From Actinomycetota bacterium (GTDB lineage Bacteria > Actinomycetota > UBA4738 > HRBIN12), in contig JBDUBL010000001.1 in NCBI GenBank assembly GCA_040004125.1, positions 3,850-67,849 on the forward strand: DNA of 64,000 nt. The letters are read 5' to 3'. The notes beneath the pieces were generated by a model. The model was not told the origin of the DNA, did not search any database, and saw only the letters and a program-made list of their open reading frames with translations. The position numbers were made by a program, and so were the translations under genes. Shown piece by piece: positions 11,235 through 53,839 of the stretch. Numbering within the stretch: the stretch's first letter is position 1; each line of letters starts with the position of its first letter.

Positions 11235-11247
11235 CACGTTGCCTCCT

Positions 11248-11676: not shown

Positions 11677-11750
11677 GCGTCCTCCCCTTTCCTCCACTGT
11701 GGCCCCCGTTTATGCCACCTACACTCCACTTCGTCAACATGGTCTGCGCC

Positions 11751-11779
11751 CGAACTGTTGTTCGAACGGCCGTTTGAAC
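11751..11779. promoter_or_regulatory. Cheo/LexA-box-like palindrome cCGAAC-TGTT-GTTCGAAC-GGCC-GTTTGAAC in the mraZ promoter region. It also reads as three 12-bp-phased GTTCRRAC direct repeats on the minus strand
   Basis: Seen at ~11751-11779, about 75-100 nt upstream of the mraZ start. GAAC-N4-GTTC core with TCGAAC-like flanks. Confidence 0.35.
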
Positions 11780-11830
11780 ATGGCGAAGCGGCCGGAAAGC
11801 ACTGGAGAGGGGCGCCGCGAGGTGGTGGTG

Positions 11831-12313: not shown

Positions 12314-12577
12314 GGAGGGAGTCTACGGCTCGCCGGGTGAATCACAAGCGTGTAACCTTGCCCCTGGGGCCGGCCCGGTCGGGATGCCTGGAGTTGCGAA
12401 CAGGGGCCGCGCGGGGCGTCCGCACGTCCGGGTCGGTCCCTCTCTTCCACCGCTCCGTCCGCTCCCCTGCGGCAACGACGTCGCCGTGCGGCGCTCGATC
12501 CACGACGGTTACGCAACTTCGAAGGGGGCGTACCATAGAGCGCAACCACGAGCGCGTCGAGCACACGGGGGTCACGG

Positions 12578-35544: not shown

Positions 35545-35694
35545 ATGCTCGCTCGGTTGCTCCCCGAACACATCGGCATCCTCGAAGGCATCTTCCTGTT
35601 GGGGCTGCTCGCTTTGACCGCCATCGTCGGCATCTTCTCGCTCTACGTCGTGACCCAGCAGTTCCGCAACCCGGGTCGCTCCGAGCGCCGCTAA
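35545..35694 (+). CDS. candidate small (49 aa) hydrophobic peptide, convergent with arcC and overlapping its stop
   Basis: ATG with AGGA ~7 nt upstream. Encodes MLARLLPEHIGILEGIFLLGLLALTAIVGIFSLYVVTQQFRNPGRSERR. Very high GC3. Too short for the ORF track. Confidence 0.3.
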   Translation: MLARLLPEHIGILEGIFLLGLLALTAIVGIFSLYVVTQQFRNPGRSERR

Positions 35695-36635
35695 GTTCTC
35701 GAACCCACGATCTCGGTGCCGGCAAGGCCCGCGAGCGCAGCGCCGGATTGTTCCAGATCGGCGATCACGGCCCGCCCGGCGCCGCCTCGCACGAACGCGA
35801 CCGCCGCTTCGACCTTCGGCCCCATCGACCCTGTCCCGAACTCGCCGCGCTTGAGCAGCCGCGTCGCTTCCGCGATGTTCATCCGCTCGATGTCCTCGGG
35901 CATCAAGGAGCCGAACCCCCGTTGCACACGCGGCACGTCGGTCAGGATCAGCAGGACCTGCGCACCGACCTCGCGCGCCAGGATCGCGGCCGCGAGGTCT
36001 TTGTCGACGACGCCTTCCTTGCCGATCAGCCGCGGGCCCTTCTCGATCACGGGCACGCCGCCGCCCCCGGCGGCGATCACGATCACGCCATCGGCGATCA
36101 GCTGCCGGATCACCGGCGTTTCGACGATCGAGTAGGGCTTCGGGCTCGGCACGACGCGACGCCAGCCCCCATGCGGATCGGGGCGCATCGCCCAGCCACG
36201 CTGCGCTTCCCGACGGTGCGCCTGCGCCTCGGTGAAGTAAGGCCCGATGTACTTCGTGGGGTTGCGGAATGCGGGATCCTGCGCGCGCACCCGCGTCAGG
36301 GTGAGCATCGTCACGACCGGTCGCTCCATGGCTCGCTCGAAGAACACGTCGCCGATCGTTACCTGCAGCAGATAGCCGATCTGGCCCTGACTCTCGGCAC
36401 CACACACATCCAGCGGCATCGGGTGCACCTGCTTGGCGGCGGCCTCCTGCTGGATCAGGATGCGGCCGACCTGCGGGCCGTTGCCGTGCGTGACCACGAC
36501 CTCCCACCCGTCTGCGGCGATGTCGGCGATGCGCTCGGCGGCGATCCGCGCCGCGGCATACATCTCGTCGTACGTGTCGGCGGCCCCTCGGCGCAACAGC
36601 GCGTTGCCGCCCAGAGCGATCACGACCCGCTGCAT
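35691..36635 (-). CDS. arcC: carbamate kinase
   Basis: MQRVVIALGGNAL...VVTHGNGPQVG...GGGGVPV match carbamate kinase. Start at the internal ATG with GGAAGGAG 5 nt upstream. The upstream ORF extension is run-on. Confidence 0.9.
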   Translation of the reverse strand: MQRVVIALGGNALLRRGAADTYDEMYAAARIAAERIADIAADGWEVVVTHGNGPQVGRILIQQEAAAKQVHPMPLDVCGAESQGQIGYLLQVTIGDVFFERAMERPVVTMLTLTRVRAQDPAFRNPTKYIGPYFTEAQAHRREAQRGWAMRPDPHGGWRRVVPSPKPYSIVETPVIRQLIADGVIVIAAGGGGVPVIEKGPRLIGKEGVVDKDLAAAILAREVGAQVLLILTDVPRVQRGFGSLMPEDIERMNIAEATRLLKRGEFGTGSMGPKVEAAVAFVRGGAGRAVIADLEQSGAALAGLAGTEIVGSRT

Positions 36636-36661: not shown

Positions 36662-37984
36662 TTACGCCGGCGCTGCCAGCACCGGAGCGAGGATATCGGT
36701 GAGCTGCGGCGAATCGGGGAGCATCTCGAGGTCGTAGCGCACCCGCACCGCGGGCTTGGAGATCGCGATCACGCTGCGCAGGTCGATCGGCGTACCGATC
36801 ACGACAACGTCGACATCGGCCGCATCGATGATGGCGGCCATCTCGGCCAGCTGTCCGTCCGAGTAGCCCATCGCCGGCAAGACGTGACCGACGTCGTACT
36901 TCTCGAATGTCTCCGCGATCGATCCGACCGCCCATGGGCGCGGGTCGACGATCTCGGCCGCCCCCATCCGCTGGGCGGCCACGACGCCCGCGCCGATCTT
37001 CATCTCGCCGTGTGTCAATGTCGGGCCGTCCTCGATCACCAGCACCCGCTTGCCGGCGATCGCGTCCGGGTCGTCGCAGGTCACGTTCGAATTGGCCTTG
37101 GCGATCGTCGCGGACGGGTTCACGTCGGCGATCGTCGCTTCCAGCTGGGCAACGTGCTCGGCCGTCGCCGAGTCGATCTTGTTGATCAACACGACATCGG
37201 CACCGCGCAGGTTGGTCTCGCCCGGGTAGTAGGTCAGCTCGTGGCCGACGCGAAGCGGGTCGACCAGCGTGATCCAGACGTCGGGCGTGTAGAACGGGAT
37301 ATCGTTGTTCCCGCCGTCCCACAACAACACGTCGCATTCGGCCTGTGCCTGCTCCAGGATCGCCCCGTAGTCAACACCCGCATAGATCACGGTGCCGCTC
37401 GTGATATGCGGCTCATATTCCTCGCGCTCCTCGATCGTGCACCGATGCAGGTCGAGGTCCGACAACGCCGCGAATCGCTGCACCGCCTGGGCGGCCAGGT
37501 CGCCGTATGGCATCGGGTGGCGCACCGCGACGACGCGCTTGCCGGCCTGCTTCAGGGCGCCCGCAACCGCGCGGGTCGTCTGGGACTTGCCGACACCCGT
37601 ACGAACGGCGGTGACCGCCACGGTCGGCACGGTCGCCTTGAGCATCGTTGCGTTGGGCCCGAGCAGAACGAAGTTCGCGCCAGCCGCCCCCACGATCGAA
37701 GCCTTGTGCATCACGTACTCATGCCGCACGTCGGAGTAGCTGAACACGACGTCGTCGACCTCGAGCTCACGGATCAACCGCACGAGCTCGGACTCGTCAT
37801 AGATCTGGATGCCGTCGGGGTACAGCGCTCCGGCAAGCGAGGCCGGGTAGCGCCGGTCGTTGATGAACGGGATCTGGGTCGCGGTGAACGCAACGACCGT
37901 CGAGGCGGCGTCGCCGCGATAGACGGTGTTGAAGTTGTGGAAGTCGCGCCCGGCGGCCCCCATGATCAAAACACGACGAGACAT
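36662..37984 (-). CDS. P-loop-containing protein of unknown function (DUF1611 / cyclic-2,3-diphosphoglycerate-synthetase-like), likely co-transcribed with arcC
   Basis: P-loop-like VRTGVGKSQTT. ~440 aa, conserved-looking throughout. It ends 27 nt before arcC. Confidence 0.55.
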   Translation of the reverse strand: MSRRVLIMGAAGRDFHNFNTVYRGDAASTVVAFTATQIPFINDRRYPASLAGALYPDGIQIYDESELVRLIRELEVDDVVFSYSDVRHEYVMHKASIVGAAGANFVLLGPNATMLKATVPTVAVTAVRTGVGKSQTTRAVAGALKQAGKRVVAVRHPMPYGDLAAQAVQRFAALSDLDLHRCTIEEREEYEPHITSGTVIYAGVDYGAILEQAQAECDVLLWDGGNNDIPFYTPDVWITLVDPLRVGHELTYYPGETNLRGADVVLINKIDSATAEHVAQLEATIADVNPSATIAKANSNVTCDDPDAIAGKRVLVIEDGPTLTHGEMKIGAGVVAAQRMGAAEIVDPRPWAVGSIAETFEKYDVGHVLPAMGYSDGQLAEMAAIIDAADVDVVVIGTPIDLRSVIAISKPAVRVRYDLEMLPDSPQLTDILAPVLAAPA

Positions 37985-38099: not shown

Positions 38100-39194
38100 T
38101 CAACGACACGTCAGGAGCTGCTCGTCCAGGAGCGTCCCGGACTCCGTCAGCAACGCGGTGCGAAGGCTGCCGGCCGCGGTGTCGGCCTCCATGCGCAGCA
38201 CGCCGAAGTGCTGCAGGTCGACGAACGCCGCCCGAGTGGGGGCGGGACCTGCGTACGACACGCCGGCGATCTCTCGGCCGCCGGCGCCCGCCACGATCTC
38301 GACGATCCCGTCGGGCTTGGCCCGTCCGCCGGTGCCGAGCGCGGGCATCCGCTCGTAGAGGTGATCGTGCCCGTTCACGACGAGGTCGGGCCGCTGGGCC
38401 GGCTTCGTGCGGTACAACGCCCGCCACACGGGATCGACATAGCCGATGTCCCCATGCCCCGCGTCGGACCATCGCGCCTGGTGCCACGCGACGATCGTGC
38501 ATGCCGCCGGCGGGTTCACTTGCGGGTCCGCGAGCGCCCGCTCGAGGAACGACGTGGTACGCGAGCCCGCCGAGCAGACCGCCGGATCGTGCTCGCACAC
38601 ACCCACATCGAGCATGATGACGGCCAGCGGATGAGCGGTCTGCGCGGCGAACGTCCGTGCGTAGTCCCCGACGCCGTCTGACAGCTCTCCCGCGAACGCC
38701 GCATCGCCGAAGTAGGACTCGAAGCCGCAGGCGTTGCGGCCCGCATGCTGGAACACGCAACCGCTCCCGGTGGGGTCGGGGTCATACCACTCGTGGTTGC
38801 CCGCGACCGGCAGCACCGCTGTGCCGGGCAGGGCACGGAGAGCGGCGCCCCACGTCATGTCGAACGATGCATAGTCCTGGGTGCGTCCCGACTCGTACTG
38901 CGTGTCGCCGAGCAGGAGCACGGCGACCGGAGCGCCCCCAGGCCCGCCGGCCACGAGCGACGCCGTCGTGGCCTGGTGACAACCGGTCGGGATCGCCGGG
39001 CTGCCGGGGGCACACGCGATGTCGCCGCTCGCGATCAGGACCATCGGGTTCCCGTGAGCGTCCGGCCCCGCCGTCGGCGCCGGCGTCGCGGTCGCCGCAG
39101 GGGCCGTCGTTACGGGGGGTGACGGGGTCTGGGTCGACTGCTCGTTCACCCGGCCGGTGCAGGCCGCCGACACGATCGCGAGCGCCACGATCAC
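38100..39194 (-). CDS. secreted/lipoprotein calcineurin-like metallophosphoesterase
   Basis: Lipobox-like AIVSAAC. GD...GNHE...GHDH motifs. The start is uncertain. The GTG at 39194 leaves a 27-nt gap to the upstream MBL gene, whereas the ATG at 39380 would overlap it. Confidence 0.65.
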   Translation of the reverse strand: MIVALAIVSAACTGRVNEQSTQTPSPPVTTAPAATATPAPTAGPDAHGNPMVLIASGDIACAPGSPAIPTGCHQATTASLVAGGPGGAPVAVLLLGDTQYESGRTQDYASFDMTWGAALRALPGTAVLPVAGNHEWYDPDPTGSGCVFQHAGRNACGFESYFGDAAFAGELSDGVGDYARTFAAQTAHPLAVIMLDVGVCEHDPAVCSAGSRTTSFLERALADPQVNPPAACTIVAWHQARWSDAGHGDIGYVDPVWRALYRTKPAQRPDLVVNGHDHLYERMPALGTGGRAKPDGIVEIVAGAGGREIAGVSYAGPAPTRAAFVDLQHFGVLRMEADTAAGSLRTALLTESGTLLDEQLLTCR

Positions 39195-39220
39195 GGAGCG
39201 CAGCTCGTGACGACCGCGAG

Positions 39221-40033
39221 TTAGACCGGGTCGCTCGTCCACCGACCCTCGTCGATCGACCCGAACGGGTGCGCGAAGTGCGTCACGCCGACGCGATACG
39301 CGTGGGTTTCCGCCCGCCACAGCAGGACACGACGCGACGCGACGCCCAGCAGCGCGTCTTCGTCGTGCTCGGAGAACCACATGCGTTCTGCGACCTGGAT
39401 CGGCTGGTGCAGCAGGTCCCCCGTCAGCAACAACCCGTCATCGCCGTCCACGACGAGCGCCGCGCGGTGCCCGGGCGTGTGTCCGGGCGCGTGGATCACG
39501 CGCACCCCTGACGCCACATCGTGATTGGTGTCGACCGCCCGCAGCACACCGAGCGATTCGAGGCGCTCGGCTGGCCGGACCGCGACGTAGGCGTTTTCGT
39601 GCGCCTCTTCGAAATGACGAAGATCGGCGGGATGCAAGTGGTAGGCGGCATTGGGGAACCGCGGTTCGAATTCGGCCGCCTCGATCCCGCCGGCGTGATC
39701 CGCGTGCAGATGTGTAAGCACGACATGGCCGACCGCGGCCAGATCCTCATCGCCCCATGCCTCCGCGTTCCAGTGCTCCCATGGGCGGTACGGCCCGAAG
39801 GGTCCGACCCCCGTGTCGACCACGACGACCCCGTCAGGCCCGTCGACGACGAACGCGTGCACGTGCCACGCCCACGCGTCCAGACCGTGGTAGCCCCACG
39901 GGTACCGTGCACGCTCCCGTGCCCAGTCGACCTGCACGCCCGGGAACTCCTCGGCGAGTGGCAGCGGTGCGAATCCCTCGCAGATGGTGCGGATCTCGAA
40001 CCGCCCGATATGGATCGGTGCCACGTGCGTCAT
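39221..40033 (-). CDS. MBL-fold metallo-hydrolase
   Basis: THLHADHAGG and HAPGHTPGH motifs. Confidence 0.8.
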   Translation of the reverse strand: MTHVAPIHIGRFEIRTICEGFAPLPLAEEFPGVQVDWARERARYPWGYHGLDAWAWHVHAFVVDGPDGVVVVDTGVGPFGPYRPWEHWNAEAWGDEDLAAVGHVVLTHLHADHAGGIEAAEFEPRFPNAAYHLHPADLRHFEEAHENAYVAVRPAERLESLGVLRAVDTNHDVASGVRVIHAPGHTPGHRAALVVDGDDGLLLTGDLLHQPIQVAERMWFSEHDEDALLGVASRRVLLWRAETHAYRVGVTHFAHPFGSIDEGRWTSDPV

Positions 40034-40044
40034 GACGCGGCAGC

Positions 40045-40635
40045 CTACCCCTTCAGGTCGCCCGGCTCATCCACGTCGAACACGGTGCGCCGTGCCGGGT
40101 CCAGCGCCGTCCACGTTGCCTCGTCGATCACCGCGATCCGCAGCCCGTCGAGCACGTCGCGGAGCCGACGCCTGCCCGCATGCAGCAGCGTATGGGTCAT
40201 ATCGGCCGCCGGCCACGTGCGCAGGACGCACGGCAAGGGTCGGGTCCGGCCGCCGTCGGCAAGCGCGACCGCATCGACCCCGGCCTCTTCCAGCACGCGG
40301 ACCATCTCGCTCAGCACGATCTGTTGCAGATCAGGCATATCGCCGGCGGCGACGATCACGATGTCGGACCGCACCGCCGCCATCAGCCCGGTGTGAAGCC
40401 CTGCGAGCGGGCCCTCGCCCTCGGTCGCGTCGTTCGCGGTACGCACGCCGGGCGGCAGCCCCGTGCCGTCCGCACCGGGCGCGAGCACGACGATCACCTC
40501 GTCGCAGACCGCCGCCAGCCGATGCACCGCGTGGTGCAACAGCGGCTGTCCGTGATAGTCGGCTACAAGCTTGTCGGTGCCGAATCGGGTCGAGCGACCG
40601 CCGGCAAGCACCAGCCCGCTAACGTTGGGCGGCAC
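40045..40635 (-). CDS. mobA: molybdenum cofactor guanylyltransferase MobA
   Basis: LVLAGGRSTRFGTDKL and DMP motifs. Overlaps the upstream Fe-S gene by 17 nt. Confidence 0.8.
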   Translation of the reverse strand: MPPNVSGLVLAGGRSTRFGTDKLVADYHGQPLLHHAVHRLAAVCDEVIVVLAPGADGTGLPPGVRTANDATEGEGPLAGLHTGLMAAVRSDIVIVAAGDMPDLQQIVLSEMVRVLEEAGVDAVALADGGRTRPLPCVLRTWPAADMTHTLLHAGRRRLRDVLDGLRIAVIDEATWTALDPARRTVFDVDEPGDLKG

Positions 40636-41578
40636 CGTCTCGGCGCTTCCGCCGCTGCACGAACTGGAACCCGAATCGGCCCTTCACACACAGATGCCCG
40701 TTCGTCACGACGTTGTCCGCGGGCGAGGTGACCTTGACTATCGAGTTGTCCTGAACGTGCAGCTCGAGCTCGCAGCCCACACCGCAATACGGACAGATCG
40801 TGTTCGTCACGCGTTGCGCGTCCTCGTCCCACGTGCCGGCTAAGCGCATGTCGTGTTCGCTGGTGAACATCAAGGCGCCGGTCGGACACACCCCGATGCA
40901 GTTGCCGCAATACACACAAGCGCTCGCATCGAGCGGCACGGCATATTCGGTCGAGATCCGGGCATCGAACCCGCGCCCGGCGACCGCGATCGCGAAGGTG
41001 AACTGCGCGTCGGTGCCGCAGGCCTCGACGCACTTGTAGCAGAGCACGCAACGCCCGTAGTCGCGCACGTACAGCTCGTTGTCGACCTTCACCGGCTGCG
41101 CGACCGTCTCGGCCGCCGCCGGGTTGGGCGCGTGGTGATGGCCCGGCTCGCGTCCGTCTCGCTCCCCAGTCGGCAAAGGGGTCATGCGCGCGCCGAATCG
41201 ATCCGGATCGGCGGCGTAGGCATCCTGCCAGCGGTGCCACTCGGGGCTCGCGAGCGACGTATCGACCGAGGACGCAAGGAACTCGATCACGAGTTTCCGC
41301 GAGCGACGCACCCGCTCGGTGTCGGTCGAGATCTTCATGCCCGCCTCCGCGGTTCGCGAGCACGCCGGCACGAGCACTCGCGAGCCTTCGACCTCGACCA
41401 CGCACACACGGCAGGCATTGATGGGGGTGAGGTTCTGCGCGTAGCACATCGTTGGGGTGTCGATGCCCTCGGCCGTACACGCGTCCAAGATCGTCGCGCC
41501 CTGCGGAACCCGCGCGGTGCGGCCATCGAGCTCGACGTCGATCAAGGTACGCGGCATCCCGAGCGGCACGGCGCTCAC
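40619..41578 (-). CDS. NuoG-like iron-sulfur subunit of formate dehydrogenase: 2Fe-2S, two 4Fe-4S ferredoxin motifs, plus the N-terminal 4Fe-4S cap of the molybdopterin (MopB) domain
   Basis: 2Fe-2S cysteines (CYAQNLTPINACRVC). Two CxxCxxCxxxCP motifs. Ends with CPYCGVGC...GHLCVKGRFGF, homologous to FdhF residues ~8-50. ATGA overlap with the NuoE/F gene. Confidence 0.8.
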   Translation of the reverse strand: MSAVPLGMPRTLIDVELDGRTARVPQGATILDACTAEGIDTPTMCYAQNLTPINACRVCVVEVEGSRVLVPACSRTAEAGMKISTDTERVRRSRKLVIEFLASSVDTSLASPEWHRWQDAYAADPDRFGARMTPLPTGERDGREPGHHHAPNPAAAETVAQPVKVDNELYVRDYGRCVLCYKCVEACGTDAQFTFAIAVAGRGFDARISTEYAVPLDASACVYCGNCIGVCPTGALMFTSEHDMRLAGTWDEDAQRVTNTICPYCGVGCELELHVQDNSIVKVTSPADNVVTNGHLCVKGRFGFQFVQRRKRRDGAAQR

Positions 41579-43395
41579 GCGGGCACCTCCCCGCCGAACA
41601 ACCCGAAGGTCGTGATCGCCGATTGCACGGCGCTTGCCGCGGTCTGCCCCAGGCCGCAGATGGACGCGTCGCGCATCACGGCGGCCACGTCCTCGAGCAG
41701 CGCGAGCTCATCGGGGGTGGAGCCCACCGTGCGACCGGCGACCAGCCGGTGAAGCGCCTCCTCCTGACGCACGGTCCCGACTCGACATGGCACGCACTGA
41801 CCACAGGACTCGTCGCGGAAGAACCGCGCGATCCGCAGACACAGGTCGACCAGATCGACGCCCTCGTCGAGCACCATGATCACCCCGGAGCCTAGGGTGT
41901 AGCCGCCGGTCCGCGCGTCCTCGAAGGTCAGCCGCACATCCAGTCGGTCGGGGCCGAGGAAGCCGCCGGCCGCGCCGCCCAGCAAGACGGCTTTGATGCC
42001 GGCGCCGTCGCGCGGGCCACCGGCAAGCGTGATCGCTTCGCGCAACGTGATTCCGTGCTCGGCCTCATAGACTCCGGGGTGCTCGATGTGACCCGACAGG
42101 CAGAAGAGCCGGGTGCCGGTCGATCCCTCGGTGCCGAGGGCCGCGTACGCGTCGGCCCCGAGCTCCATGATCGGGAGCACGTTGATCAGCGTCTCGACGT
42201 TGTTGATCGCCGTCGGTCGCCCGAAGACCCCGTGTGTGACGGGGAAGGGCGGCTTGTTCCGCGGCTCACCGCGCTTGCCCTCGATCGAGTTGAACAGCGA
42301 CGTCTCCTCGCCGCAGATGTAGGCGCCGGCGCCCCGGCGCAGCTCGATATCGAACGCGAAACCGCCGTGCATCACGTCGGGACCGAGGAGGGCTGCGTCA
42401 CGGGCATCCTCGATCGCGGCGAGCAGGTGCTTCGTTGCACGCGGGTACTCGCCACGGATGTACAGGTAGCCGGTCTCGGCCCCGGTGGCGAACCCCGCGA
42501 TCGTGAGCGCTTCGATGACCGCGAACGGATCGTGTTCCATGATCACACGGTCCTTGAAGGTGCCCGGCTCGGATTCGTCGGCGTTGCAGACCACGTGCTT
42601 GGGTCCCGGGGGCTGATCGGCGACCGCTCGCCACTTCACGCCGGTGGGGAATGCAGCACCACCTCGGCCGAGCAGCCTCGCATCGGTGACCTGTTGGATC
42701 ACGGCGTCTGGGCCCAGCTCGATCGCGCGCGCGAGTCCCGCGTACCCACCGTGCGCGCGGTAGTCGTGCAGCGATGCGGGATCGACCGAACCGACGCGTC
42801 GCAGCAGACGCTCGCCGCCGTGACGGGGGGCAAGCGCGGGAGGCGCCATCAGCGTGCGGTCGCCACGCACGGAGCCAACGATGTGCTCGGCGTCGGCGGG
42901 CGCGACCACGTGCGAGACCGCGCCGGCGCCGGCCTCCTGGAAGAACACCGCGGGCGCGGCGTCGCACATGCCGAGACACGGGCTCCGCACGACCCGAGCG
43001 TCGCCGGCAAGCTCAGCCTCCACGCGCGCCGCCATCGCGTCGCCGCCACGGATCCGGCAGGCCAGGTCGTCACAGACGTGCACGACCGTCGTCGGCTGCG
43101 GGGCGACGCTGAACATCGCGTAGAACGTCGCGACGCCGTAGGCCTCGGCGGGTGGCACGACCAGGCGCTCGCATGCGTAGCTGAGACCGCCCTCGCTGAT
43201 CCACCCGACGCGCGCCTGAAGCGCATGCAGTACGGGCAACAGCAAGGTGCGACGCTCTTCGGGGGCGCGCGACACGCGGAGATCGCGCTCCGTGCGCTCC
43301 CCGCCATCCCAGCCGGTCTCCGGCGCGCCAAGCACCGTATCGACCGCCGAACGCTCCTCGGCGGTTGGCTCCGCGGTCATCAGGTGCAGGTCCAC
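41575..43395 (-). CDS. NuoE-NuoF fusion, the NAD(H)-binding diaphorase subunit of formate dehydrogenase (FdsG/FdsB-like)
   Basis: N-terminal NuoE-like 2Fe-2S region (CDDLACRIRGG...CLGMCDAAP). NuoF FMN/NAD motifs (GRGGAAFPTGVKW, CNADESEPGTFKDR). C-terminal 4Fe-4S cysteines (ESCGQCVPCR...C). Confidence 0.85.
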   Translation of the reverse strand: MDLHLMTAEPTAEERSAVDTVLGAPETGWDGGERTERDLRVSRAPEERRTLLLPVLHALQARVGWISEGGLSYACERLVVPPAEAYGVATFYAMFSVAPQPTTVVHVCDDLACRIRGGDAMAARVEAELAGDARVVRSPCLGMCDAAPAVFFQEAGAGAVSHVVAPADAEHIVGSVRGDRTLMAPPALAPRHGGERLLRRVGSVDPASLHDYRAHGGYAGLARAIELGPDAVIQQVTDARLLGRGGAAFPTGVKWRAVADQPPGPKHVVCNADESEPGTFKDRVIMEHDPFAVIEALTIAGFATGAETGYLYIRGEYPRATKHLLAAIEDARDAALLGPDVMHGGFAFDIELRRGAGAYICGEETSLFNSIEGKRGEPRNKPPFPVTHGVFGRPTAINNVETLINVLPIMELGADAYAALGTEGSTGTRLFCLSGHIEHPGVYEAEHGITLREAITLAGGPRDGAGIKAVLLGGAAGGFLGPDRLDVRLTFEDARTGGYTLGSGVIMVLDEGVDLVDLCLRIARFFRDESCGQCVPCRVGTVRQEEALHRLVAGRTVGSTPDELALLEDVAAVMRDASICGLGQTAASAVQSAITTFGLFGGEVPA

Positions 43396-43405
43396 GCCGC
43401 GCAGG

Positions 43406-45325
43406 CTACCGTTCCGCCGCGACCGCGAGCTTCTCCACCCGGATCGCCGTGGCCTTGAACTCCGAGGTTCCGGACTTCGGGTCAGAGACGTCGTTCGTGA
43501 TCCGGTTGGTCGCGACCTGCTCCGGGAAGTGGAAGGTCATGAACGCGAGCCCCGCCCGCAGGGCGGTCGTGACGTGGACCGGGGCCTCGATCGCCCCACG
43601 GCGCGAGATGATCCGCACGACCTCGCCCTCGCCGACGTCCAGCGTGCGCGCGTCCTCGGGGCACAGATCGAGCGACTCCCCTCGGTGCAATGGCGAGGAG
43701 AACGCGTTGGTCTGCACACCGGTGTTATAGGACTCCAGCCGGCGTCCGGTCGTGAGGCGCATCGGGAATTCCTCGGTCAAGGTATCGGCCGGTGCCACGT
43801 CCTCCACCACCGAGAAGGGGGCCTTGCGCCCCTGCGCGTCGGGGTCCTCAAACGCCCACAGGCGCGCGTGCAGGAACTGCGCGCCATCGGGAAACTGCTC
43901 GTTGCAGGGCCATTGGATGCCACCGAGCTCCTCGATGCGCGCCCACGACATCAAGGTGTGCATGGGTGACAGCGCTCGGAGCTCGTCCCAGGCCTGTTCG
44001 GATGTCACGTCGCCCCAGTCGTTGCCCAGACGCGCGGCGAGCTGCGCGATGATCCACATATCGTCGCGCGCCTCACCGGGCGGCTCGAGCGCTTTGCGCA
44101 CGCGTTGGACCCGACGCTCGGAGTTCGTCACGGTGCCATCGGTCTCGAACGCGCCGTTCGCGGCCGGGAACACGACGTCGGCGAGCTCGGCGGTCTTAGT
44201 GAGAAAGATATCCTGCACGATCAGGGTGTCGAGCCCTTGGAGCAGGTGCACCGCGTGATCCTGGTCGGCCTCCGACGTGGCGGGGTTCTCGCCGATGCAG
44301 TACACGGCCGTGAGTTCGCCGCGGTCCATCGCCTCGAACATCTCGGTGAGGTGCCACCCGGTGCGCGGCTCGATCGGCACACCCCACGCCGCCTCGAACC
44401 GCGCGCGAGCGGCGGCATCGCTCTCGATGTCCTGGAACCCCGGCAGCTTGTTCGGGATCGCGCCCATGTCGCCGCCGCCCTGCACGTTGTTCTGGCCGCG
44501 GAGCGGGTTCAGACCGCTGCCGTAGCGACCCACATGACCGGTGAGCAGTCCGAGGTTGATCAACGACAGCACGTTGTCGACCGCGTTGCGGTGCTCGGTG
44601 ATACCGAGCGTCCAGCAGATCATGGCGTTCTCTGCCTCGGCCAATCCGTGTGCGAGATCTCGGATGACGTCGCTCGGAACGCCCGTGACCTCGGCGCCCC
44701 GCTCCAGTGTCCATTCCTCGACGCTCGAGGCGTACTCGGGGAAGTGCAGGGTCGCGCCTTCGATGAAGTCGGTCCGTGCGAGCCCCGCATGGATGATCTC
44801 GCGAGCGATCGTATTGGACAGACCCACGTCCGTGCCCACGTCGATGCCCAACCAGAGATCCGCGAATTCGGCCGTCTCGGTACGCCGCGGATCCACGACG
44901 ATCAGCCGGGCCTCACGCTGCATCGCCTTGAGGACATGGTGGAAGAAGATCGGATGCGCGGCGCGCGCATTCGACCCCCACAGCACGATGAGGTCCGTGT
45001 GCTCGACCTCTTCGTACGAGCTGGTACCGCCCCCGGCACCGAACACGGTCGCCAGACCGACGACCGAAGGTGCGTGTCAGGTGCGGTTGCAGCTATCGAT
45101 GTTGTTCGTTCGAAGGACTTGGCGAGCGAACTTCCCTGCGATGAAGTTCATCTCGTTCGTGGCCTTCGAGCAGCTGAAGATCCCTGCCCCCCAGCCGGGG
45201 TTCCGCTCCATCGCGCGACGCAGCCCCCCGGCGGCCCGGTCAAGGGCCTCATCCCAGGTGGCGGCACGCAGCGCTCCGTTCTCACGGACCATCGGCTCGG
45301 TCAGCCGGGTCATCGATGCCGACAT
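43406..45325 (-). CDS. fdhA: formate dehydrogenase molybdopterin catalytic subunit, selenocysteine-containing (in-frame TGA at 45077-45079). It lacks its own N-terminal 4Fe-4S cap
   Basis: Track ORFs 45077..45361 and 43406..45046 are in the same frame and separated only by a TGA. The context ...KFARQVLRTNNIDSCNRT-U-HAPSVVGL aligns with E. coli FdhF ...[27 protein letters not shown]. Downstream MopB domains are intact. Start at ATG 45325 with GGAGGAAGGAG 9 nt upstream. Confidence 0.75.
45035..45076 (-). promoter_or_regulatory. bacterial SECIS-like hairpin immediately 3' of the UGA
   Basis: mRNA reads UGA-CAC-GCA-CCU-UCG-GUC-GUC-GGU-CUG-GCG-ACC. CGGUCGUCGGUCUGGCGACCG folds into a ~9-bp stem with the apical GGUCUG at +22..+27 from the U of UGA, the same motif and spacing as the E. 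coli fdhF SECIS. Confidence 0.55.
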
Positions 45326-46915: not shown

Positions 46916-47508
46916 CCGATCCGCGCTTCCGCGTCGAGACGGTGCCCCTGGAGGCGCGCGGCTTCCAAGGACAACCGGCGGGACTCATCACGCGGGTCGC
47001 CGCCAACGTGATCGACCTGGCCGCCGTGCTGGTCGCGCTGGTGGTCTGTTATCTCGCCACGGCGGGGGTCCTGTTCCTTCGCCGCGGCGCCCGGTTCTCG
47101 TTCCCGATCGTGTCGTATCCGACGGCGTTTTGGGCCGGGTTGCTCGCCCTGGTCGTCTATTTCGCGGTCTCCTGGGCAACGGGGGGTCGCACCTACGGCG
47201 ACCGCGTGCTCGGGTTGCGCGTCACCACCGCTGCCGGCCTCGGTCTCGGCGGTGCTCGAGCCACCGTGCGGGCCGTGCTGTCCGCGTTGTTCCCCGTGCT
47301 CCTCCTCTGGGTCGCGGTGAGTCGGGCCAGCCGTTCGATACAAGACCTCGTCGTTGGCACCGTCGTGATCTATGACTGGGGGCCGGCGAGACGCGTGATC
47401 GCCTCAGGCGACGCGATCGGGGTGGCTGTAGATGTTGCATCGCCCGTCGCGCACGAAGCCGAGGACCGTAACGCCGAGGCGGTTACCGGCCTCGACCGCG
47501 AGCGATGA
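46912..47508 (+). CDS. RDD family membrane protein
   Basis: RDD motif (RTYGDRVLGLRV) between TM helices. Translationally coupled to the repeat protein. The C-terminal ~35 codons overlap fdhD convergently. Confidence 0.6.
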   Translation: MTDPRFRVETVPLEARGFQGQPAGLITRVAANVIDLAAVLVALVVCYLATAGVLFLRRGARFSFPIVSYPTAFWAGLLALVVYFAVSWATGGRTYGDRVLGLRVTTAAGLGLGGARATVRAVLSALFPVLLLWVAVSRASRSIQDLVVGTVVIYDWGPARRVIASGDAIGVAVDVASPVAHEAEDRNAEAVTGLDRER

Positions 47509-48240
47509 CGGTGCGCTGACGGCGCTCACCACCGGGATCCCCGCCACGGCGGCCTTCTGCACGATCTCGAACGACGCGCGACCCGAGACCTGCAGGATCG
47601 CCTCGGACAGGGGCACCCGGCCGGCAAGCATCTGCTCGCCGATCACCTTGTCGACGGCGTTGTGCCTGCCCACGTCCTCGCGGATCGCGATCGGCTCGCC
47701 CGCGGCGGTGAACAGCCCCGCGGCGTGCAGGCCGCCGGTCCGGTCGAAGACCTGCTGGGCGGCGCGCAGTCGCTCGGGTAACCCGACCAGCACGGCGGCG
47801 GGCACCGTCAAGCCGAGCGGCACCACGGCGCATCGCACGGCGATGTCGTCCAGCGACGCCTTCCCGCACACACCGCAGGACGAGGTTGCGAAGAAGTTCC
47901 GACGGAGCCGCTCGGTGTCCACGGGCGTCGCCAGCGTGACCGTCACGACGTTGTAGCGCTGGTCTTCGTCATCGAGGTCGTCGCAATACGCGACCCGACG
48001 CACGTCCCCGGAACCCACCAACCCTTCCGTGAACAGGAACCCTGCGGCGAGTTCGAAGTCGCCGCCGGGCGTGCGCATCGTCACGGCGACCTGCGATGCC
48101 TCTTGCCCGGGCCCCTGGGCCCGGATCTCCAGCGGTTCCTCGGTCGCAAGGGTGTCTGCCCGCTCGCCCCGGGTGCCGTCGTGGACGGTCACCACCCGAA
48201 CGGGGGTCACGTTGCGACGGATCTGCTCGGGAGCGGCCAC
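47404..48240 (-). CDS. fdhD: formate dehydrogenase accessory sulfurtransferase FdhD
   Basis: SCGVCGK and GRHNAVDK motifs. Start approximate (GTG at 48240). The ORF N-terminus is run-on. Confidence 0.85.
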   Translation of the reverse strand: MAAPEQIRRNVTPVRVVTVHDGTRGERADTLATEEPLEIRAQGPGQEASQVAVTMRTPGGDFELAAGFLFTEGLVGSGDVRRVAYCDDLDDEDQRYNVVTVTLATPVDTERLRRNFFATSSCGVCGKASLDDIAVRCAVVPLGLTVPAAVLVGLPERLRAAQQVFDRTGGLHAAGLFTAAGEPIAIREDVGRHNAVDKVIGEQMLAGRVPLSEAILQVSGRASFEIVQKAAVAGIPVVSAVSAPSSLAVEAGNRLGVTVLGFVRDGRCNIYSHPDRVA

Positions 48241-48767: not shown

Positions 48768-50438
48768 ATGAAGTCCGGCCTCGAGATCGCCCAGGAAGCC
48801 ATCCTTCGCCCGATCGCCGACGTGGCCGCCGATGCCGGCATCCACCCCGACGAGCTCAAACCCTATGGCTCGACCCGAGCCAAGGTGTCCTTGTCGATCC
48901 TCGAGCGCCTGGCGGATCGAAGGGACGGGAAGCTCATCATCACGACCGCGATCACCCCGACGAAGGCCGGCGAAGGAAAGACGACCACCTCGGTGTCGCT
49001 CACCCAGGGCCTGGGGGCGATCGGCAAGCAGGTCGTCTTGGCCCTTCGCGAGCCGAGCATGGGCCCGGTGTTCGGGATCAAGGGCGGCGGGACCGGGGGT
49101 GGCTACGCGCAGGTCGTGCCGATGGAGGAGATCAACCTGCACTTCAACGGCGACTTCCACGCCATCACCGCCGCGCACAACCTCTTGTCCGCCGCACTGG
49201 ACGCCTCGATCTACCACGGCGATCCCCTCGGCATCGATCCGCAGTCGATCACCTGGCCGCGGACCCTCGACGTGAACGACCGCGAGTTGCGCAACACGGT
49301 GGTCGGCCTTGGCGGCAAGGCCCACGGCATCCCCCGTCAGGAGGGGTTCGTGATCACGGCGGCCTCCGAGATCATGGCGATCCTGGCGTTGGCGAGCGAT
49401 CTGCACGACCTTCGCGGCCGGCTCGGCCGTATCATCGTCGCCGCCACCTACGACGGCGCCCCGGTGACCGCCGAGGACCTTCGCGTCGCGGGCGCGATGA
49501 CCGTGATCATGCGCGATGCGATCGAGCCGAACCTCGTACAGACGCTCGAGCATCAACCCGTGCTGCTGCACGCGGGGCCGTTCGGCAATATCGCGCATGC
49601 GAACAACTCGATCATCGAGGATCGGATCGCCCTCAAACTCGCCGACTACGTCGTGACCGAAGCGGGCTTCGGAAGCGATCTCGGATTCCAGAAGTTCTGC
49701 GACATCGTGTGCCGCTTCGGCGGGTTCGTCCCGAGCGCCGGGGTGCTCGTCACCACCGTGCGGGCCACCAAATCTCACGGCGGGATGCCGTTCGCCGATC
49801 TCGGCAACGAGGATCTCGACGCGCTCAGCCGCGGGATCGACAACCTGACGGCCCACGTCGCTATCCTTCGCGAGTACGGCCTGCCGTGCGTCGTGTCCAT
49901 CAACAACTTCCCCGACGACACCGACGCCGAGATCGAGCTGATCCGCAGACTGGCGGTCGATGCCGGCGCTGAGACCGTCGTCGTGAACCGCGGGTTCGCC
50001 GAGGGTGGCCGGGGCGCCATCGAGCTGGCGGAAGCCGTGGTGACGGCCTGCGAGCGGCCGAACACCTTCCATCAGCTCACACCGCCGGACACGCCGCTGC
50101 GGGTGCAGATCGACACCATCGCGACGAAGCTCTACGGCGCCGAGGGCGTGGACTATCTGCCGCAGGCCGAGAAGGACCTCGCGCGCATGGACCAGCTCGG
50201 GTTCGGCACGGTACCGGTGTGCATGGCCAAGACCCACTTGTCCCTCAGCCACGATCCGCTGCTGCTGGATCGCCCAACCGGGTTCCGCCTGCCCGTACGC
50301 AGCGTGGTGCCGAGCGCGGGCGCCGGGTTCGTCGTCGCGCTGTGCGGCGACATGCAGCGGATGCCTGGGCTGGGGAAGACGCCGAACTACATGGGCGTGG
50401 ACATCGACGCCGACGGCACGACGACGGGGCTGTTCTGA
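48768..50438 (+). CDS. fhs: formate--tetrahydrofolate ligase
   Basis: TPTKAGEGKTTTSVSL and GPVFGIKGGGTGGGYAQV motifs. Full length (556 aa). Confidence 0.9.
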   Translation: MKSGLEIAQEAILRPIADVAADAGIHPDELKPYGSTRAKVSLSILERLADRRDGKLIITTAITPTKAGEGKTTTSVSLTQGLGAIGKQVVLALREPSMGPVFGIKGGGTGGGYAQVVPMEEINLHFNGDFHAITAAHNLLSAALDASIYHGDPLGIDPQSITWPRTLDVNDRELRNTVVGLGGKAHGIPRQEGFVITAASEIMAILALASDLHDLRGRLGRIIVAATYDGAPVTAEDLRVAGAMTVIMRDAIEPNLVQTLEHQPVLLHAGPFGNIAHANNSIIEDRIALKLADYVVTEAGFGSDLGFQKFCDIVCRFGGFVPSAGVLVTTVRATKSHGGMPFADLGNEDLDALSRGIDNLTAHVAILREYGLPCVVSINNFPDDTDAEIELIRRLAVDAGAETVVVNRGFAEGGRGAIELAEAVVTACERPNTFHQLTPPDTPLRVQIDTIATKLYGAEGVDYLPQAEKDLARMDQLGFGTVPVCMAKTHLSLSHDPLLLDRPTGFRLPVRSVVPSAGAGFVVALCGDMQRMPGLGKTPNYMGVDIDADGTTTGLF

Positions 50439-50442
50439 CCCG

Positions 50443-50856
50443 CTAGGCAACATCATCGTCAGCGGGCATGACGCAGAACTCGTTGCCCTCTGGGTCAAGC
50501 ATCACGCACCACACGCCCCCGTCGCCCTCGGCCCAGTTGTGGATCGAGGCGCCGATCCCCTCGAGCCGTTCCACCTCGGCCTCGAGGTCATCGTCGGCGA
50601 CCACGTCCAGATGCACGCGGTTCTTCGACATCTTGCCCTCCGGCACCTCGGTGAAAAACAGCACGGGCAGCGCCGTGCCCTCCGGCGGCTCGACCATCAC
50701 CGAGGGATCCTCCTCGGGGTCCGTGATGCCCTTGGCCGCCAGGCGCGTCAGCTCGACCTCGTCGTAGGGAGCGATCGTCCACCCTAACGTGGCCGCCCAG
50801 AATCGAGCCAACGGGGCCGCGTCGCGGCAGTCGAAGACGATCGCGTCGATCCGCAC
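50443..50856 (-). CDS. VOC (glyoxalase/bleomycin-resistance) family protein
   Basis: Fold-level match to the small VOC domain. Low sequence specificity. Confidence 0.6.
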   Translation of the reverse strand: MRIDAIVFDCRDAAPLARFWAATLGWTIAPYDEVELTRLAAKGITDPEEDPSVMVEPPEGTALPVLFFTEVPEGKMSKNRVHLDVVADDDLEAEVERLEGIGASIHNWAEGDGGVWCVMLDPEGNEFCVMPADDDVA

Positions 50857-50907
50857 GCAGGCAGCCTGGCGCGACGCGACGCCGAGCGCAAGCCCGCCCG
50901 GTGTTGA

Positions 50908-51687
50908 TCAGACGTGCAGCGCGATCATGAACGCCTCGCTGACATCGCGCAGGATCGACTGAGCACGATGCCGCAGGGAGTTCGCGGAGTCGGTGAGCTC
51001 GTGCTGGCGCGTTTTGTCCAGGAACGTGATCGCGTTGATATCGACGTTGGCCAGCGCCGACAGGGTCGCCGCGTGCAGCGATGTCGCCGCGCTCAGCGCG
51101 TCGGAGGCCGCGTTCGGGTTGCCGTTGGCCAGCGTCTCCTCGGCCAAGCTCATCAGGTACACGGAGCGCCGGGCCACTTCCAGCGGGATGTCCGCCGCGC
51201 GCTCCAATGCCTTCTGGAGTGTGAACCCCCATGTGTGCTGCTCCTCGGGGGTCGTCTTGGGCAGCTTGTAGGCCGCCATGACGGCCTGGTAGGCCTCGGC
51301 GTCCCTGTCCGCGAGGCCGAGCAGCGCGTAGCGTTCGTCGTCGCACTCGTCGGCGATCGTGCGCATGCGGTCGGCGACGGGTTCGAAACCCTTCTTCTTC
51401 AGAGTCAAGCGCGCGACCATCGCGATCAGGGAGGCGCCGGCGGCGGCCGAGACGGCGGCCCAGGCGCCGCCACCGGGCGTCGGCGAGTCCGACGCGAGGT
51501 CTTCCAGATAGGCGCCCACCCGAGATCCCGCCGTCGGCATGTCATCGATCGGCACCTTGCTGGGCGCCGAGGTCGTCGCCGGGCCGCCGCTGGCCCAGGT
51601 CCCCCCGGAGGTCTCCGCGGACATATCGGGGATCGGCGCCGGCGCGAGTTCCTGCTTCCGCTCGGGCGACATCCACTGGTCACTCAT
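50908..51687 (-). CDS. cyclodeaminase/cyclohydrolase family protein (FTCD C-terminal-like / FchA-like)
   Basis: GGGAWAAVSAAAGASLIAMVARLT and the following helical bundle match PF04961. Low-complexity N-terminal linker. ATGA overlap with the formimidoyltransferase gene. Confidence 0.7.
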   Translation of the reverse strand: MSDQWMSPERKQELAPAPIPDMSAETSGGTWASGGPATTSAPSKVPIDDMPTAGSRVGAYLEDLASDSPTPGGGAWAAVSAAAGASLIAMVARLTLKKKGFEPVADRMRTIADECDDERYALLGLADRDAEAYQAVMAAYKLPKTTPEEQHTWGFTLQKALERAADIPLEVARRSVYLMSLAEETLANGNPNAASDALSAATSLHAATLSALANVDINAITFLDKTRQHELTDSANSLRHRAQSILRDVSEAFMIALHV

Positions 51688-52586
51688 GACGCCTCCTCGA
51701 TCAGCCGCTCCAACACCTGCGTCGTTCGGTCGAACCCCTGAAGCCGCACCTGCTCGGCGGCCTCCTCGGGCAACGCCGCCTCCGGCACGAGACCCACGAT
51801 CTCGGAGTCGGTGACCTCTCCCCCACGTGCCTCAGCCTGTGCGACCACCGCATCGTATGCCGTTCGCACGCTCGTGACCTCGAAGTCGACCAAGTTCATC
51901 GAGACGGTTACACAACCCCGCTCCGGCACGTGGAATCCGATCGCCCGAACGGCCGGCAATCCACCGCCGGATGCGCGGATCGTCCGTGCGATGTCCTTGG
52001 CCGCGCTCTCGTCCACCCCGATGAGGTAGACGTTGAACGCCACGAGCGGGGAGCGTGCCCCGACCGCGGTCGCGCCGGCCCGACCGATCTGGTGCGGTCC
52101 GAAGTCGGGCAGGCGCTCCCCTCGGGACACCGCCTCGCGCAGCCCCTCGTACTCACCGCGGCGCACGTCGGCAAGCGACACGCGGTCTGGCGTGCGCGCC
52201 GCGCGGTCATACAGGTAGACGGGCAGATCCAACTCGGCCGCGAGGGTCTGGCCGACCTCGACGGCAAGCGAGACGCATTCCTGCATCGAGACATCCCGCA
52301 CGGGCATGAAGGGGATCACGTCGGCGGCGCCCATCCGGGGATGCCCGCCGTGGTGCTGCTCCATGTCGATCAGTGCGACGGCCACGCGTGTTCCGGCGAT
52401 CGCAGCTCGGCGCACCGCCTCGCGACTGCCGAGGACGGTGGCGTCGAGGCGATGATGATCGGGGTCGGCTTGGCGGTACACGAGATGCGCACCCGGAACG
52501 GCCAGGGCATCGCAGATCGCATCCATCACGTCCGCGCGCCGACCCTCGGAGAAGTTCGGCACGACACCGTAGATGGGTTCGTTCAC
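51684..52586 (-). CDS. ftcD: glutamate formimidoyltransferase
   Basis: VPNFSEGR motif and the FT N/C subdomains. Confidence 0.8.
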   Translation of the reverse strand: MNEPIYGVVPNFSEGRRADVMDAICDALAVPGAHLVYRQADPDHHRLDATVLGSREAVRRAAIAGTRVAVALIDMEQHHGGHPRMGAADVIPFMPVRDVSMQECVSLAVEVGQTLAAELDLPVYLYDRAARTPDRVSLADVRRGEYEGLREAVSRGERLPDFGPHQIGRAGATAVGARSPLVAFNVYLIGVDESAAKDIARTIRASGGGLPAVRAIGFHVPERGCVTVSMNLVDFEVTSVRTAYDAVVAQAEARGGEVTDSEIVGLVPEAALPEEAAEQVRLQGFDRTTQVLERLIEEAS

Positions 52587-52642
52587 GACCGACAGGATAG
52601 TGCCAGGGTCGGCGCCCGCCGACCCTGGGGACCCGCCCGACC

Positions 52643-53722
52643 TCAGGTCCGGGGGGTCTGCTTCTGTGGATCGAGGATCGACAGGGGCGCCACCGTTGCC
52701 ACCGCGCCGCCGACCTCGACCTTAGTCCCGTCGGTCGCGACCGCAGCGTCCAAGATGGCGAGCCCGATCGAGCCCACGCGCGGGCTCTCCGCGGGCGAGG
52801 TGACCACCCCGACCTCGGCGCCGTCCTTGGACACGACGGTTCCAGCCTCGGGCGCCGCGCCCTCGAATCGCAGGGTCTTGAACCGCTTCGGCGGGTTGGT
52901 GCCATAGGCGGCCAGGGCCTCTGCGCCCACGCACTCCGTGTCGGTCTTGATGAAGCGATCCATCGACAGGTCCCAGGGCGAGCGCTCGCCCGGGTCGTAG
53001 TCCATCGCGATGATGATCAAACCGACCTCGATGCGAGCCAAGTCGATCGCGGTCAACCCGAACGGGGTCGCGCCGGCGGCAAGAAGCGCGTCCCAGACCA
53101 CCTGTGCGTCAGCGGGGTCCAGCACGAGCTCATACCCGTGTTCGCCGCTGAACCCCGTACGCAAGACGTGCGCTGCGATACCGGCCACCGTCGTGGACTT
53201 CGGCCAGAACCGGAAGTATGAGAGATCGCCGAGATCACGCTCGGTCAGCGGCTGGAGCGTGGCCTGCGAGGTCGGCCCCTGCACGGCGATCATGGCGAGA
53301 TCCAGCGTCTTGTGCACGATCGAGGCGTCGAGGCCCTGCGCCGTCTCACGGAACCAGTCCTCGATCCCCGCGGAGTTGAGCGTGATCCAGAAGCGATCGT
53401 CGGCGAACTTGTACACGTTGCCCTCGTCGATCATCAGCCCGTCGGCGTTCACGAAGGCGCCGTAGCGCACCGAGCCCTCCGCCATACCCGCGAGGGTGTT
53501 CGTGAAGCGGCGCTGGATCAGTCCGGCGGCATCGGGGCCGGTCACCTCGTATTTGCAGGTCGAGAACAGATCCCAGATGCCCGTCGCGGTGCGCAGCGCC
53601 TCGTACTCGGCCATCGGGTCGCCGCCCTCGTGCATGTTCCAAGGGAACCCGTCTTCCCAGACGATGTCGGCGCCGTGGGCAACATGCCAGTCGTGCAGCG
53701 GCGAGCGTGCGTCCTCGGTCAT
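52643..53722 (-). CDS. aminomethyltransferase (GcvT) family folate-binding protein
   Basis: GcvT fold motifs. Start at the internal ATG (MTEDARSP) with GGAAGGAG 7 nt upstream. Confidence 0.75.
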   Translation of the reverse strand: MTEDARSPLHDWHVAHGADIVWEDGFPWNMHEGGDPMAEYEALRTATGIWDLFSTCKYEVTGPDAAGLIQRRFTNTLAGMAEGSVRYGAFVNADGLMIDEGNVYKFADDRFWITLNSAGIEDWFRETAQGLDASIVHKTLDLAMIAVQGPTSQATLQPLTERDLGDLSYFRFWPKSTTVAGIAAHVLRTGFSGEHGYELVLDPADAQVVWDALLAAGATPFGLTAIDLARIEVGLIIIAMDYDPGERSPWDLSMDRFIKTDTECVGAEALAAYGTNPPKRFKTLRFEGAAPEAGTVVSKDGAEVGVVTSPAESPRVGSIGLAILDAAVATDGTKVEVGGAVATVAPLSILDPQKQTPRT

Positions 53723-53839
53723 GGATCGCTCCTTCCTGCCGCTGCCTCGGTAGCGCGGCACCGTTCGTTCGGATCGTCGATGGATCGGCCCCCCGAAGGT
53801 ACCGGGGATCGGGCGCGCTGTGGTAACCGGCCCGCGCCG

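Follow-up and report, generated by a model that had tools for sequence, protein, structure and literature searches.

Gene organisation of the locus

The 64,000-nucleotide (nt) stretch of DNA analysed here (the window, from contig JBDUBL010000001.1 of an Actinomycetota bacterium) carries on its minus strand, reading from position 45325 down to 40045, four tightly packed genes that would encode a formate dehydrogenase with a divided catalytic polypeptide, together with an enzyme of cofactor synthesis. The first gene (43406..45325, minus strand) encodes the catalytic subunit, identified by Pfam and TIGR01591 as a molybdenum or tungsten bis-pyranopterin guanine dinucleotide (Mo/W-bisPGD) protein of 639 amino acids (aa) with a predicted selenocysteine (Sec) at residue 83, and is referred to below as the Mo subunit. 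It is followed by a NuoE/NuoF fusion (NuoEF; 41575..43395, minus strand), a diaphorase recognised by Pfam and by alignment to 7e5z_B that would hold a [2Fe-2S] cluster, a site for flavin mononucleotide (FMN) and reduced nicotinamide adenine dinucleotide (phosphate) (NAD(P)H), and a [4Fe-4S] cluster. The third gene (40619..41578, minus strand) encodes a NuoG/HoxU-like iron-sulphur (Fe-S) subunit of 319 aa, to which Pfam and an alignment to FdsA assign a [2Fe-2S] cluster, two [4Fe-4S] clusters and a further [4Fe-4S] cluster in a cap domain. This cap, the FS0 domain, spans residues 256–308 (40655..40813, minus strand) according to Molybdop_Fe4S4 and TIGR01591. The last gene (40045..40635, minus strand) encodes a MobA-like molybdenum cofactor guanylyltransferase, as indicated by Pfam NTP_transf_3, TIGR02665 and the junction sequence. 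Close to these four genes, an FdhD gene (47404..48240, minus strand, with an approximate start coordinate) matched Pfam FdhD-NarQ at E 5e-65; FdhD is a sulfurtransferase and chaperone required in formate dehydrogenase maturation.

An initial annotation of this DNA had placed the four genes at the same coordinates on the minus strand and had correctly given a gap of 10 nt from the Mo gene to the NuoEF gene, where the sequence reads TAG, 10 nt and then GTG. At the junction of the NuoEF and Fe-S genes, for which an ATGA overlap had been reported, the sequence reads GTGA instead, and mobA, described as fused onto the operon end, is a separate gene sharing 17 nt with the Fe-S gene. The same annotation took the frames to be intact, which does not apply to the Mo gene, where an in-frame TGA occurs at 45077–45079. 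The start codon of the Mo gene is the ATG at 45325, preceded by GAAGGAG, and upstream of it a spacer of 96 nt leads to a Tag glycosylase gene, leaving no room for a hidden cap exon. A promoter and terminator scan of 39000–46200 returned nothing informative.

Division of the catalytic polypeptide

Pfam matched the Mo subunit to Molybdopterin over nearly the whole profile (positions 1–352 of 353, E 3e-66) and to Molydop_binding (E 7.7e-24), with no Pfam match to Molybdop_Fe4S4 (PF04879) on this protein. Its alignment to FdhF begins at FdhF residue 60–62. Compared with FdsA (solved chains 6tg9_A and 9wxb_B), residues 6–630 of the Mo subunit align to FdsA 307–931 and residues 13–312 of the Fe-S subunit to FdsA 25–308, so that the two proteins together rebuild FdsA with nothing lost or repeated. 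The NCBIfam model TIGR01591 (Fdh-alpha) is likewise divided between them, profile positions 1–53 falling on Fe-S residues 260–312 and positions 50–672 on Mo residues 4–630. As a result of this division, the Mo subunit scores below the curated cutoff (615 bits versus 666.25), a shortfall that matches the absent cap.

These alignments bear out the earlier claim that the cap is missing from the Mo subunit and present at the end of the NuoG-like Fe-S subunit. The accompanying statement that the canonical cap forms the N-terminus of the Mo subunit is true of FdhF-type enzymes but not of FdsA, in which the cap is internal, at approximately residues 255–306. We found no cap motif upstream of 45325, where an overlooked exon might have been expected, nor upstream of the Mo gene in 64 related loci. 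The related loci counted here come from a GTDB scan with one genome per species, in which the best 80 loci (65–89% identity in the Fe-S subunit) were compared by tblastn of the window proteins.

The Mo subunit contains the active-site motifs SCNRT-U-HAPSV and LRGQNNVQG, and all 43 family members compared have U83, H84 and R276 unchanged. Formate dehydrogenases are defined by a metal-ligating Sec or Cys with His directly after it and by the arginine of RGQNNVQG (PMC8808070).

In the Fe-S subunit, Pfam detected Fer2_4, two Fer4 motifs and, at the C-terminus, Molybdop_Fe4S4 (E 5.5e-19) with the cap motif CPYCGVGC...C297-V-K299-GRFGF. Sixteen cysteines are invariant across 81 members of the Fe-S family, of which C45/56/59/73 are assigned to the [2Fe-2S] cluster, C177/180/183/187 and C221/224/227/231 to the two [4Fe-4S] clusters, and C262/265/269/297 to the cap cluster. 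K299, also invariant in the family, aligns to the lysine of the FdsA VKGRF motif; with both the cap cysteines and this residue on the Fe-S subunit, FS0 and the second-sphere lysine would be supplied in trans. The counterpart in E. coli FdhH, Lys44, is strictly conserved, and only its substitution by Arg gives an active enzyme, at 7.1% of wild type (PMC12176258).

Every Fe-S gene ends shortly past the cap, with variable C-terminal tails of roughly 10–45 residues. In the E. coli FdhH structure, domain I, to which the cap belongs, is reportedly made whole by parts of the catalytic chain that come later in the sequence, and if this arrangement holds here, the Fe-S tail would interlock closely with the Mo subunit. 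Joining of the two halves by protein splicing through a split intein was considered and rejected: the Fe-S tails are short and variable, and no intein-sized segment was seen at the junctions.

The His-ligated [4Fe-4S] cluster of FdsA, termed A4 and coordinated in FdsA/RcFDH (the Rhodobacter capsulatus formate dehydrogenase) by His117, Cys121, Cys124 and Cys130, is absent. No Pfam match to NADH-G_4Fe-4S_3 was obtained on the Fe-S subunit, and no conserved Cys occurs in its residues 88–170 across the 81 members, where the segment aligned to the FdsA His-cluster carries no Cys at all. In RcFDH, A4 lies at the dimer interface, off the path from bis-MGD (the bis-molybdopterin guanine dinucleotide cofactor) to FMN (PMC7171172), and its loss therefore leaves the main wire intact. 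FdsA-style cross-talk between dimer halves is unlikely in an enzyme lacking this cluster.

NuoEF shows Pfam matches to 2Fe-2S_thioredx (residues 44–155), Complex1_51K, SLBB and NADH_4Fe-4S. Its C108/113/140/144 and C531/534/537/580 are invariant, as are the FMN/NADH motifs, and residues 44–597 align full length to Methylorubrum extorquens Fdh1B (7e5z_B, residues 45–559). Among its best solved matches are the B chains of Bfu-type enzymes (9bov_B, 7t2r_B, 9n5u_B and 7q4v_B); however, alignments to these bifurcating B chains stop at approximately 503–520 of 584–602 aa, and NuoEF ends 26 residues past its last (N3-type) Cys, indicating that it is without the two-[4Fe-4S] ferredoxin domain found at the C-terminus of Bfu B subunits.

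A search with the Fe-S subunit against 1.84 billion representative proteins gave mostly metagenome fragments, from which P0246, P0131, P0121 and P0184 were taken as unsplit or distant relatives. The nearest unsplit relative found is P0246, an FdhA of 904 aa without the His cluster that is 41% identical to each of the two halves and whose gene order, NuoE, NuoF, FdhA, is canonical. Judged against this relative, the window carries a circularly permuted version of NuoE-F / Fe-S-cap / Mo, cut where the cap meets the Mo domain and with the Mo domain placed first. Such an order may have originated if the operon was duplicated in tandem and then lost its terminal parts.

In place of the lost His-cluster domain is a linker with a G-H-H-H motif at Fe-S residues 146–149 (41132..41143, minus strand). 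Across the 81 family members, G146, H148, R140 and D141 vary little or not at all, and the motif is absent from P0246; a role as a metal or partner contact is possible.

Predicted selenocysteine codon and conservation in related genomes

The Mo reading frame holds an in-frame TGA (45077..45079, minus strand) at the catalytic Sec/Cys position, which translation and the family alignment read as selenocysteine, and which causes a plain list of open reading frames (ORFs) to split the gene into ORFs of 94 aa and 546 aa. TGA occupies the same codon in each of the 65 related loci possessing the Mo gene, with the reading frame conserved on either side; the unsplit P0246 has Cys at its active site. Directly 3' of the UGA lies a hairpin resembling a selenocysteine insertion sequence (SECIS; 45036..45073, minus strand), recognised by its fold and by covariation. 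When the same 48 nt were taken from the 65 related loci and aligned, the apical loop GGUCU, starting 18 nt after the UGA, was found to be invariant, and stem pair 18–30 showed no mispair, being CG in 42 sequences and GC in 14. Across the stem, 88% of cells were paired, as against 30–65% with the partner column slid. The loop and its distance from the UGA presumably match those of the E. coli fdhF SECIS. An Rfam scan of the window gave no match at the gathering threshold.

Among 60 related loci scanned, eight tRNA genes were detected, six of which are tRNA-Sec and precede the Mo gene by a few kb (L034:899-997, L035:1437-1535, L045:2754-2852, L046:2442-2538 and L073:1475-1571, and one within L032:1-6000). 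The order in L032 is SelD, tRNA-Sec, SelA, SelB, FdhD, Mo, NuoEF, Fe-S, and in both L034 and L046 SelD and/or SelA adjoin the tRNA-Sec. In genomes with an adjacent tRNA-Sec, the Sec machinery thus looks genomically tied to this one enzyme. We conclude that the catalytic residue, overlooked in the initial annotation, is predicted to be a UGA-encoded selenocysteine with a SECIS element.

Relatives of the Fe-S subunit are encoded by at least 561 GTDB species genomes. The best 80 all stem from metagenome-assembled genomes (MAGs) and are labelled as Actinomycetota, Acidobacteriota, Chloroflexota and Planctomycetota (Isosphaeraceae), with further labels of Verrucomicrobiia, Gemmatimonadales, Vulcanimicrobiota and Thermomicrobiaceae. 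Rather than the canonical order, 65 of the 65 loci with a Mo gene, from MAGs bearing the labels of no fewer than seven phyla, show Mo, NuoEF and Fe-S-cap in this sequence on one strand, at identities to the window proteins of 62–82% for the Mo and 65–89% for the Fe-S subunit. In fifteen further loci the sequence upstream of NuoEF/Fe-S is missing, in almost every case at a contig end. A more distant relative, with only 53% identity, shows this order too, and its Mo gene is likewise split at a UGA. The arrangement is therefore that of a large, multi-phylum family and no peculiarity of this locus.

Beyond these genomes, relatives of the Fe-S subunit number in the thousands. The best 120 share 78–89% identity, nearly all measure 308–341 aa (three have 382–392 aa), and they show the same domain set; no Molybdopterin domain is listed on any of these 120. 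Single clusters at 90% identity hold up to 270 metagenome sequences. A homologue search with the Fe-S version from a Streptosporangiaceae MAG returned MAG and metagenome proteins only, and the exact sequence of the window Fe-S protein has no database record.

Most related loci also have an FdhD gene no more than a few kb away, and MobA follows the Fe-S gene in the Actinomycetota clade only. Directly after mobA, the window also carries a gene of metallo-beta-lactamase fold (39221..40033, minus strand), which is likewise confined in this position to that clade and co-conserved in many of its loci.

Gene callers cut the Mo gene at the UGA, yielding 82 + 528 aa in one related locus (L001:4263-6188) and 61 + 518 aa in another (L084:1255-3170). 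The Fe-S subunit is labelled 'NADP-reducing hydrogenase subunit HndD' or 'YjgC' by the Joint Genome Institute (JGI), and also bears the label '2Fe-2S iron-sulfur cluster-binding protein'. Between the severed Mo gene and the mislabelled Fe-S gene, the enzyme is effectively hidden from routine annotation.

Proposed enzyme, alternatives and known systems

Taken together, the sequence data make it highly probable that the operon encodes a cytoplasmic, Sec-dependent, NAD(P)+-linked Mo/W formate dehydrogenase composed of three polypeptides. The proposal made in the initial annotation, a functional though rearranged NAD-type enzyme with its cap provided in trans, is supported by the conservation of the split, the ligands and the gene order. 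From homology and co-conservation, we infer that the cap docks on the Mo subunit; the assignments of NAD versus NADP, Mo versus W and physiological direction are inferred as well. The bis-MGD metal site of the Mo subunit, with Sec83, His84 and Arg276, would oxidise formate or reduce CO2, and electrons would then pass to the proximal [4Fe-4S] cluster FS0, whose Cys ligands, along with Lys299, are predicted to lie on the last approximately 55 residues of the Fe-S subunit. They would next cross the two ferredoxin-type [4Fe-4S] clusters and the [2Fe-2S] cluster of this subunit, and finally reach the [4Fe-4S] cluster and FMN of NuoE/F and then NAD(P)+.

Several observations weigh against this assignment. 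That the three proteins form a complex is a prediction from their genes, and an AlphaFold model of the Fe-S subunit by itself, built with 30 homologues, was unusably poor (mean predicted local distance difference test score 51, predicted template modelling score 0.48). Folding energy does not set the SECIS hairpin apart from shuffled sequence (z = -0.02), so that the case for it rests on the covariation and the invariant loop. No tRNA of any kind, no tRNA-Sec and no sel genes occur within the 64-kb window, and the Sec competence of this genome is accordingly judged from its relatives. In Chloroflexia loci, 2–5 kb of unrelated, variable genes stand between the Mo gene and NuoEF/Fe-S (L034:5603-7995, L052:4488-8052, L061:3035-7956, L066:2275-5267 and L071:4815-7938), among them an ATP-binding cassette (ABC) ATPase with a permease, a two-component regulator, a sigma factor, and antitoxin-like and GYD-like genes. 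The two halves hence need not be co-transcribed, and co-transcription is not universal. A further Chloroflexia locus (L078) has no Mo gene within 8 kb upstream, and no cultured organism is found among the best matches listed.

The Chloroflexia insertions also lend some colour to a different reading, in which NuoEF together with the Fe-S subunit would be an independent NAD(P)H diaphorase for some other partner, for example a hydrogenase, while the Mo subunit would work apart from them with a different acceptor; the JGI label 'HndD' points the same way. We nevertheless regard this as very unlikely. Pfam finds no hydrogenase H-cluster domain on the Fe-S subunit, its C-terminus is an FS0 module of the formate dehydrogenase type complete with the Lys44 counterpart, and we know of no role for such a module away from a pterin domain. 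A capless Mo subunit would, moreover, be left without an electron exit, and both genes lie on one strand in all 65 informative loci.

We attach a similarly small probability to flavin-based electron bifurcation by an enzyme of the Bfu / HydABC / HylABC-FdhF type. The B subunits of bifurcating enzymes do appear among the best solved matches of NuoEF, but the C-terminal two-[4Fe-4S] ferredoxin domain is lacking from NuoEF, and no gene for a ferredoxin-type partner is conserved in the operon.

That the Mo subunit acts on something other than formate, for instance in the manner of an assimilatory nitrate reductase, seems less probable still. Although the NasC and NasA models match the Mo subunit at 384 and 338 bits, the Fdh-alpha model, with 615 bits, is far ahead of both, and every one of the best solved matches is a formate dehydrogenase or a CO2 reductase. 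The invariant Sec/Cys-His dyad, the equally invariant RGQNNVQG arginine and the adjacent FdhD also speak for formate.

Least credible of all is a rearranged pseudo-operon or assembly artefact with the TGA as a real stop and the capless Mo gene as a decaying fragment: the ORF list and, in L001 and L084, the gene callers do break the Mo gene there, but this reading is effectively refuted by the recurrence of the same order and TGA, with flanks conserved in frame, in 65 independent loci of many phyla, and by the invariant ligands, the covarying SECIS stem and the Sec machinery linked to the operon in relatives.

The surroundings of the operon are compatible with one-carbon metabolism. A folate cluster adjoins it at 48768..55053, comprising formate-tetrahydrofolate (THF) ligase (Fhs; 48768..50438, plus strand) and genes for an FTCD_C cyclodeaminase, an FTCD_N formiminotransferase, GcvT, an RNase T-like exonuclease and 5-formyl-THF cyclo-ligase. 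These neighbours suggest that the formate dehydrogenase oxidises formate released from the folate pool, with the direction put forward as a proposal. On the other side of the operon, two long ORFs (36662..37984 and 38100..39380, both minus strand; 440 and 426 aa) have coding-like third-position GC and no Pfam match at E <= 1e-5, the former adjoining an amino-acid-kinase (carbamate-kinase-like) gene at about 35691..36500. Further away, 1506..16997 holds a cell-division and cell-wall cluster with FtsW, two Mur ligases, a penicillin-binding protein transpeptidase, MraW and MraZ, and after the cell-wall cluster come an HNH endonuclease (11831..12313) and a MoxR-AAA / DUF58 / transglutaminase trio. 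This content fits an ordinary region of an actinobacterial chromosome.

If the split enzyme operates as proposed, an FS0 cap that is usually integral to the catalytic subunit can come from a partner protein, which would bear on the folding, cofactor uptake and assembly of formate dehydrogenases and would offer a natural split design for the engineering of CO2-reducing enzymes. With its Mo gene cut at the UGA, a sub-threshold model score and a mislabelled Fe-S subunit, the enzyme could be overlooked by surveys of soil formate metabolism or selenium use.

We lean, by a modest margin of confidence, towards regarding it as the first recognised Mo/W-bisPGD enzyme in which FS0 and the Lys44 equivalent reside on another polypeptide, that of the electron wire. 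It would combine a fixed circular permutation with obligate Sec dependence and would occur widely and in large numbers among uncultured soil Actinomycetota, Acidobacteriota, Chloroflexota and others, and, as annotation misses it, the formate/CO2 capacity and selenium dependence of soils could be underestimated. To our knowledge, no case of FS0 on a different subunit has been described, and the literature searched contained no published description of a split cap; subscription journals lay outside this coverage, and an earlier description is therefore possible. The nearest published arrangement is a two-subunit FdhAB with a NuoE/F-fusion beta subunit from deep-sea Chloroflexi (PMC5736913).

Among characterised systems, we propose that the window enzyme would work like FdsABG and Fdh1AB. 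It shares with FdsABG(D) of Rhodobacter capsulatus and Cupriavidus necator (6tg9, 6vw7) the NuoE and NuoF modules, the HoxU/NuoG wire, the FS0 cap, the bis-MGD domain and an FdhD-type chaperone, and with the tungsten enzyme FDH1 of Methylorubrum extorquens (Fdh1AB; 7e5z, 7vw6) a beta subunit that is a NuoE/NuoF fusion. It departs from both in lacking the single alpha chain, the His-ligated cluster and the Cys (in place of Sec) of the aerobic representatives. FdsA is one polypeptide, whereas here it is cut after the cap with the Mo part encoded first; similarly, Fdh1A is a single 989-aa chain containing the Fe-S extension, cap and Mo domain, which in the window are split. In both known enzymes, the Fe-S extension is fused N-terminally to the catalytic subunit, in contrast to the separate gene downstream of NuoEF seen here. 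FdsABG also has separate NuoE and NuoF, a catalytic Cys and cluster A4, where the window enzyme has a fusion, Sec and no A4. No FdsD was seen in the operon, nor did any small conserved ORF stand out there, although no search aimed at FdsD was made.

The closest solved relatives of the Mo subunit are of the FdhF type, namely E. coli FdhH (1aa6) and FdhF of the Thermoanaerobacter kivui hydrogen-dependent CO2 reductase (HDCR; 7qv7_S, 491 bits). The U/C-H and Arg motifs are common to these and the window protein, and E. coli FdhH also uses Sec, but FdhF-type proteins start with the cap (approximately residues 1–60), whereas the Mo subunit starts at the equivalent of residues 60–62. HoxU resembles the Fe-S subunit in being a stand-alone protein, similar to the N-terminal part of NuoG, that wires a NuoEF-type flavoprotein (the HoxU model scores 122 bits); judged by the 6tg9 structure and by Pfam domains, HoxU has the His-ligated cluster and no Molybdop_Fe4S4 cap, and the opposite holds for the window protein.

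A Mo/W-bisPGD enzyme of the same superfamily that is already known to be split, with one domain provided as a separate polypeptide, is formylmethanofuran dehydrogenase FwdB/FwdD. According to the RcFDH study, the C-terminus is replaced in Methanothermobacter by an additional subunit (PMC7171172). There, it is the C-terminal Molydop_binding domain that is split off while the cap stays with the catalytic chain (5t5i_B aligns from residue 49), whereas in the enzyme proposed here, with its cap joined to the electron-wire subunit, it is the cap itself that has been separated.

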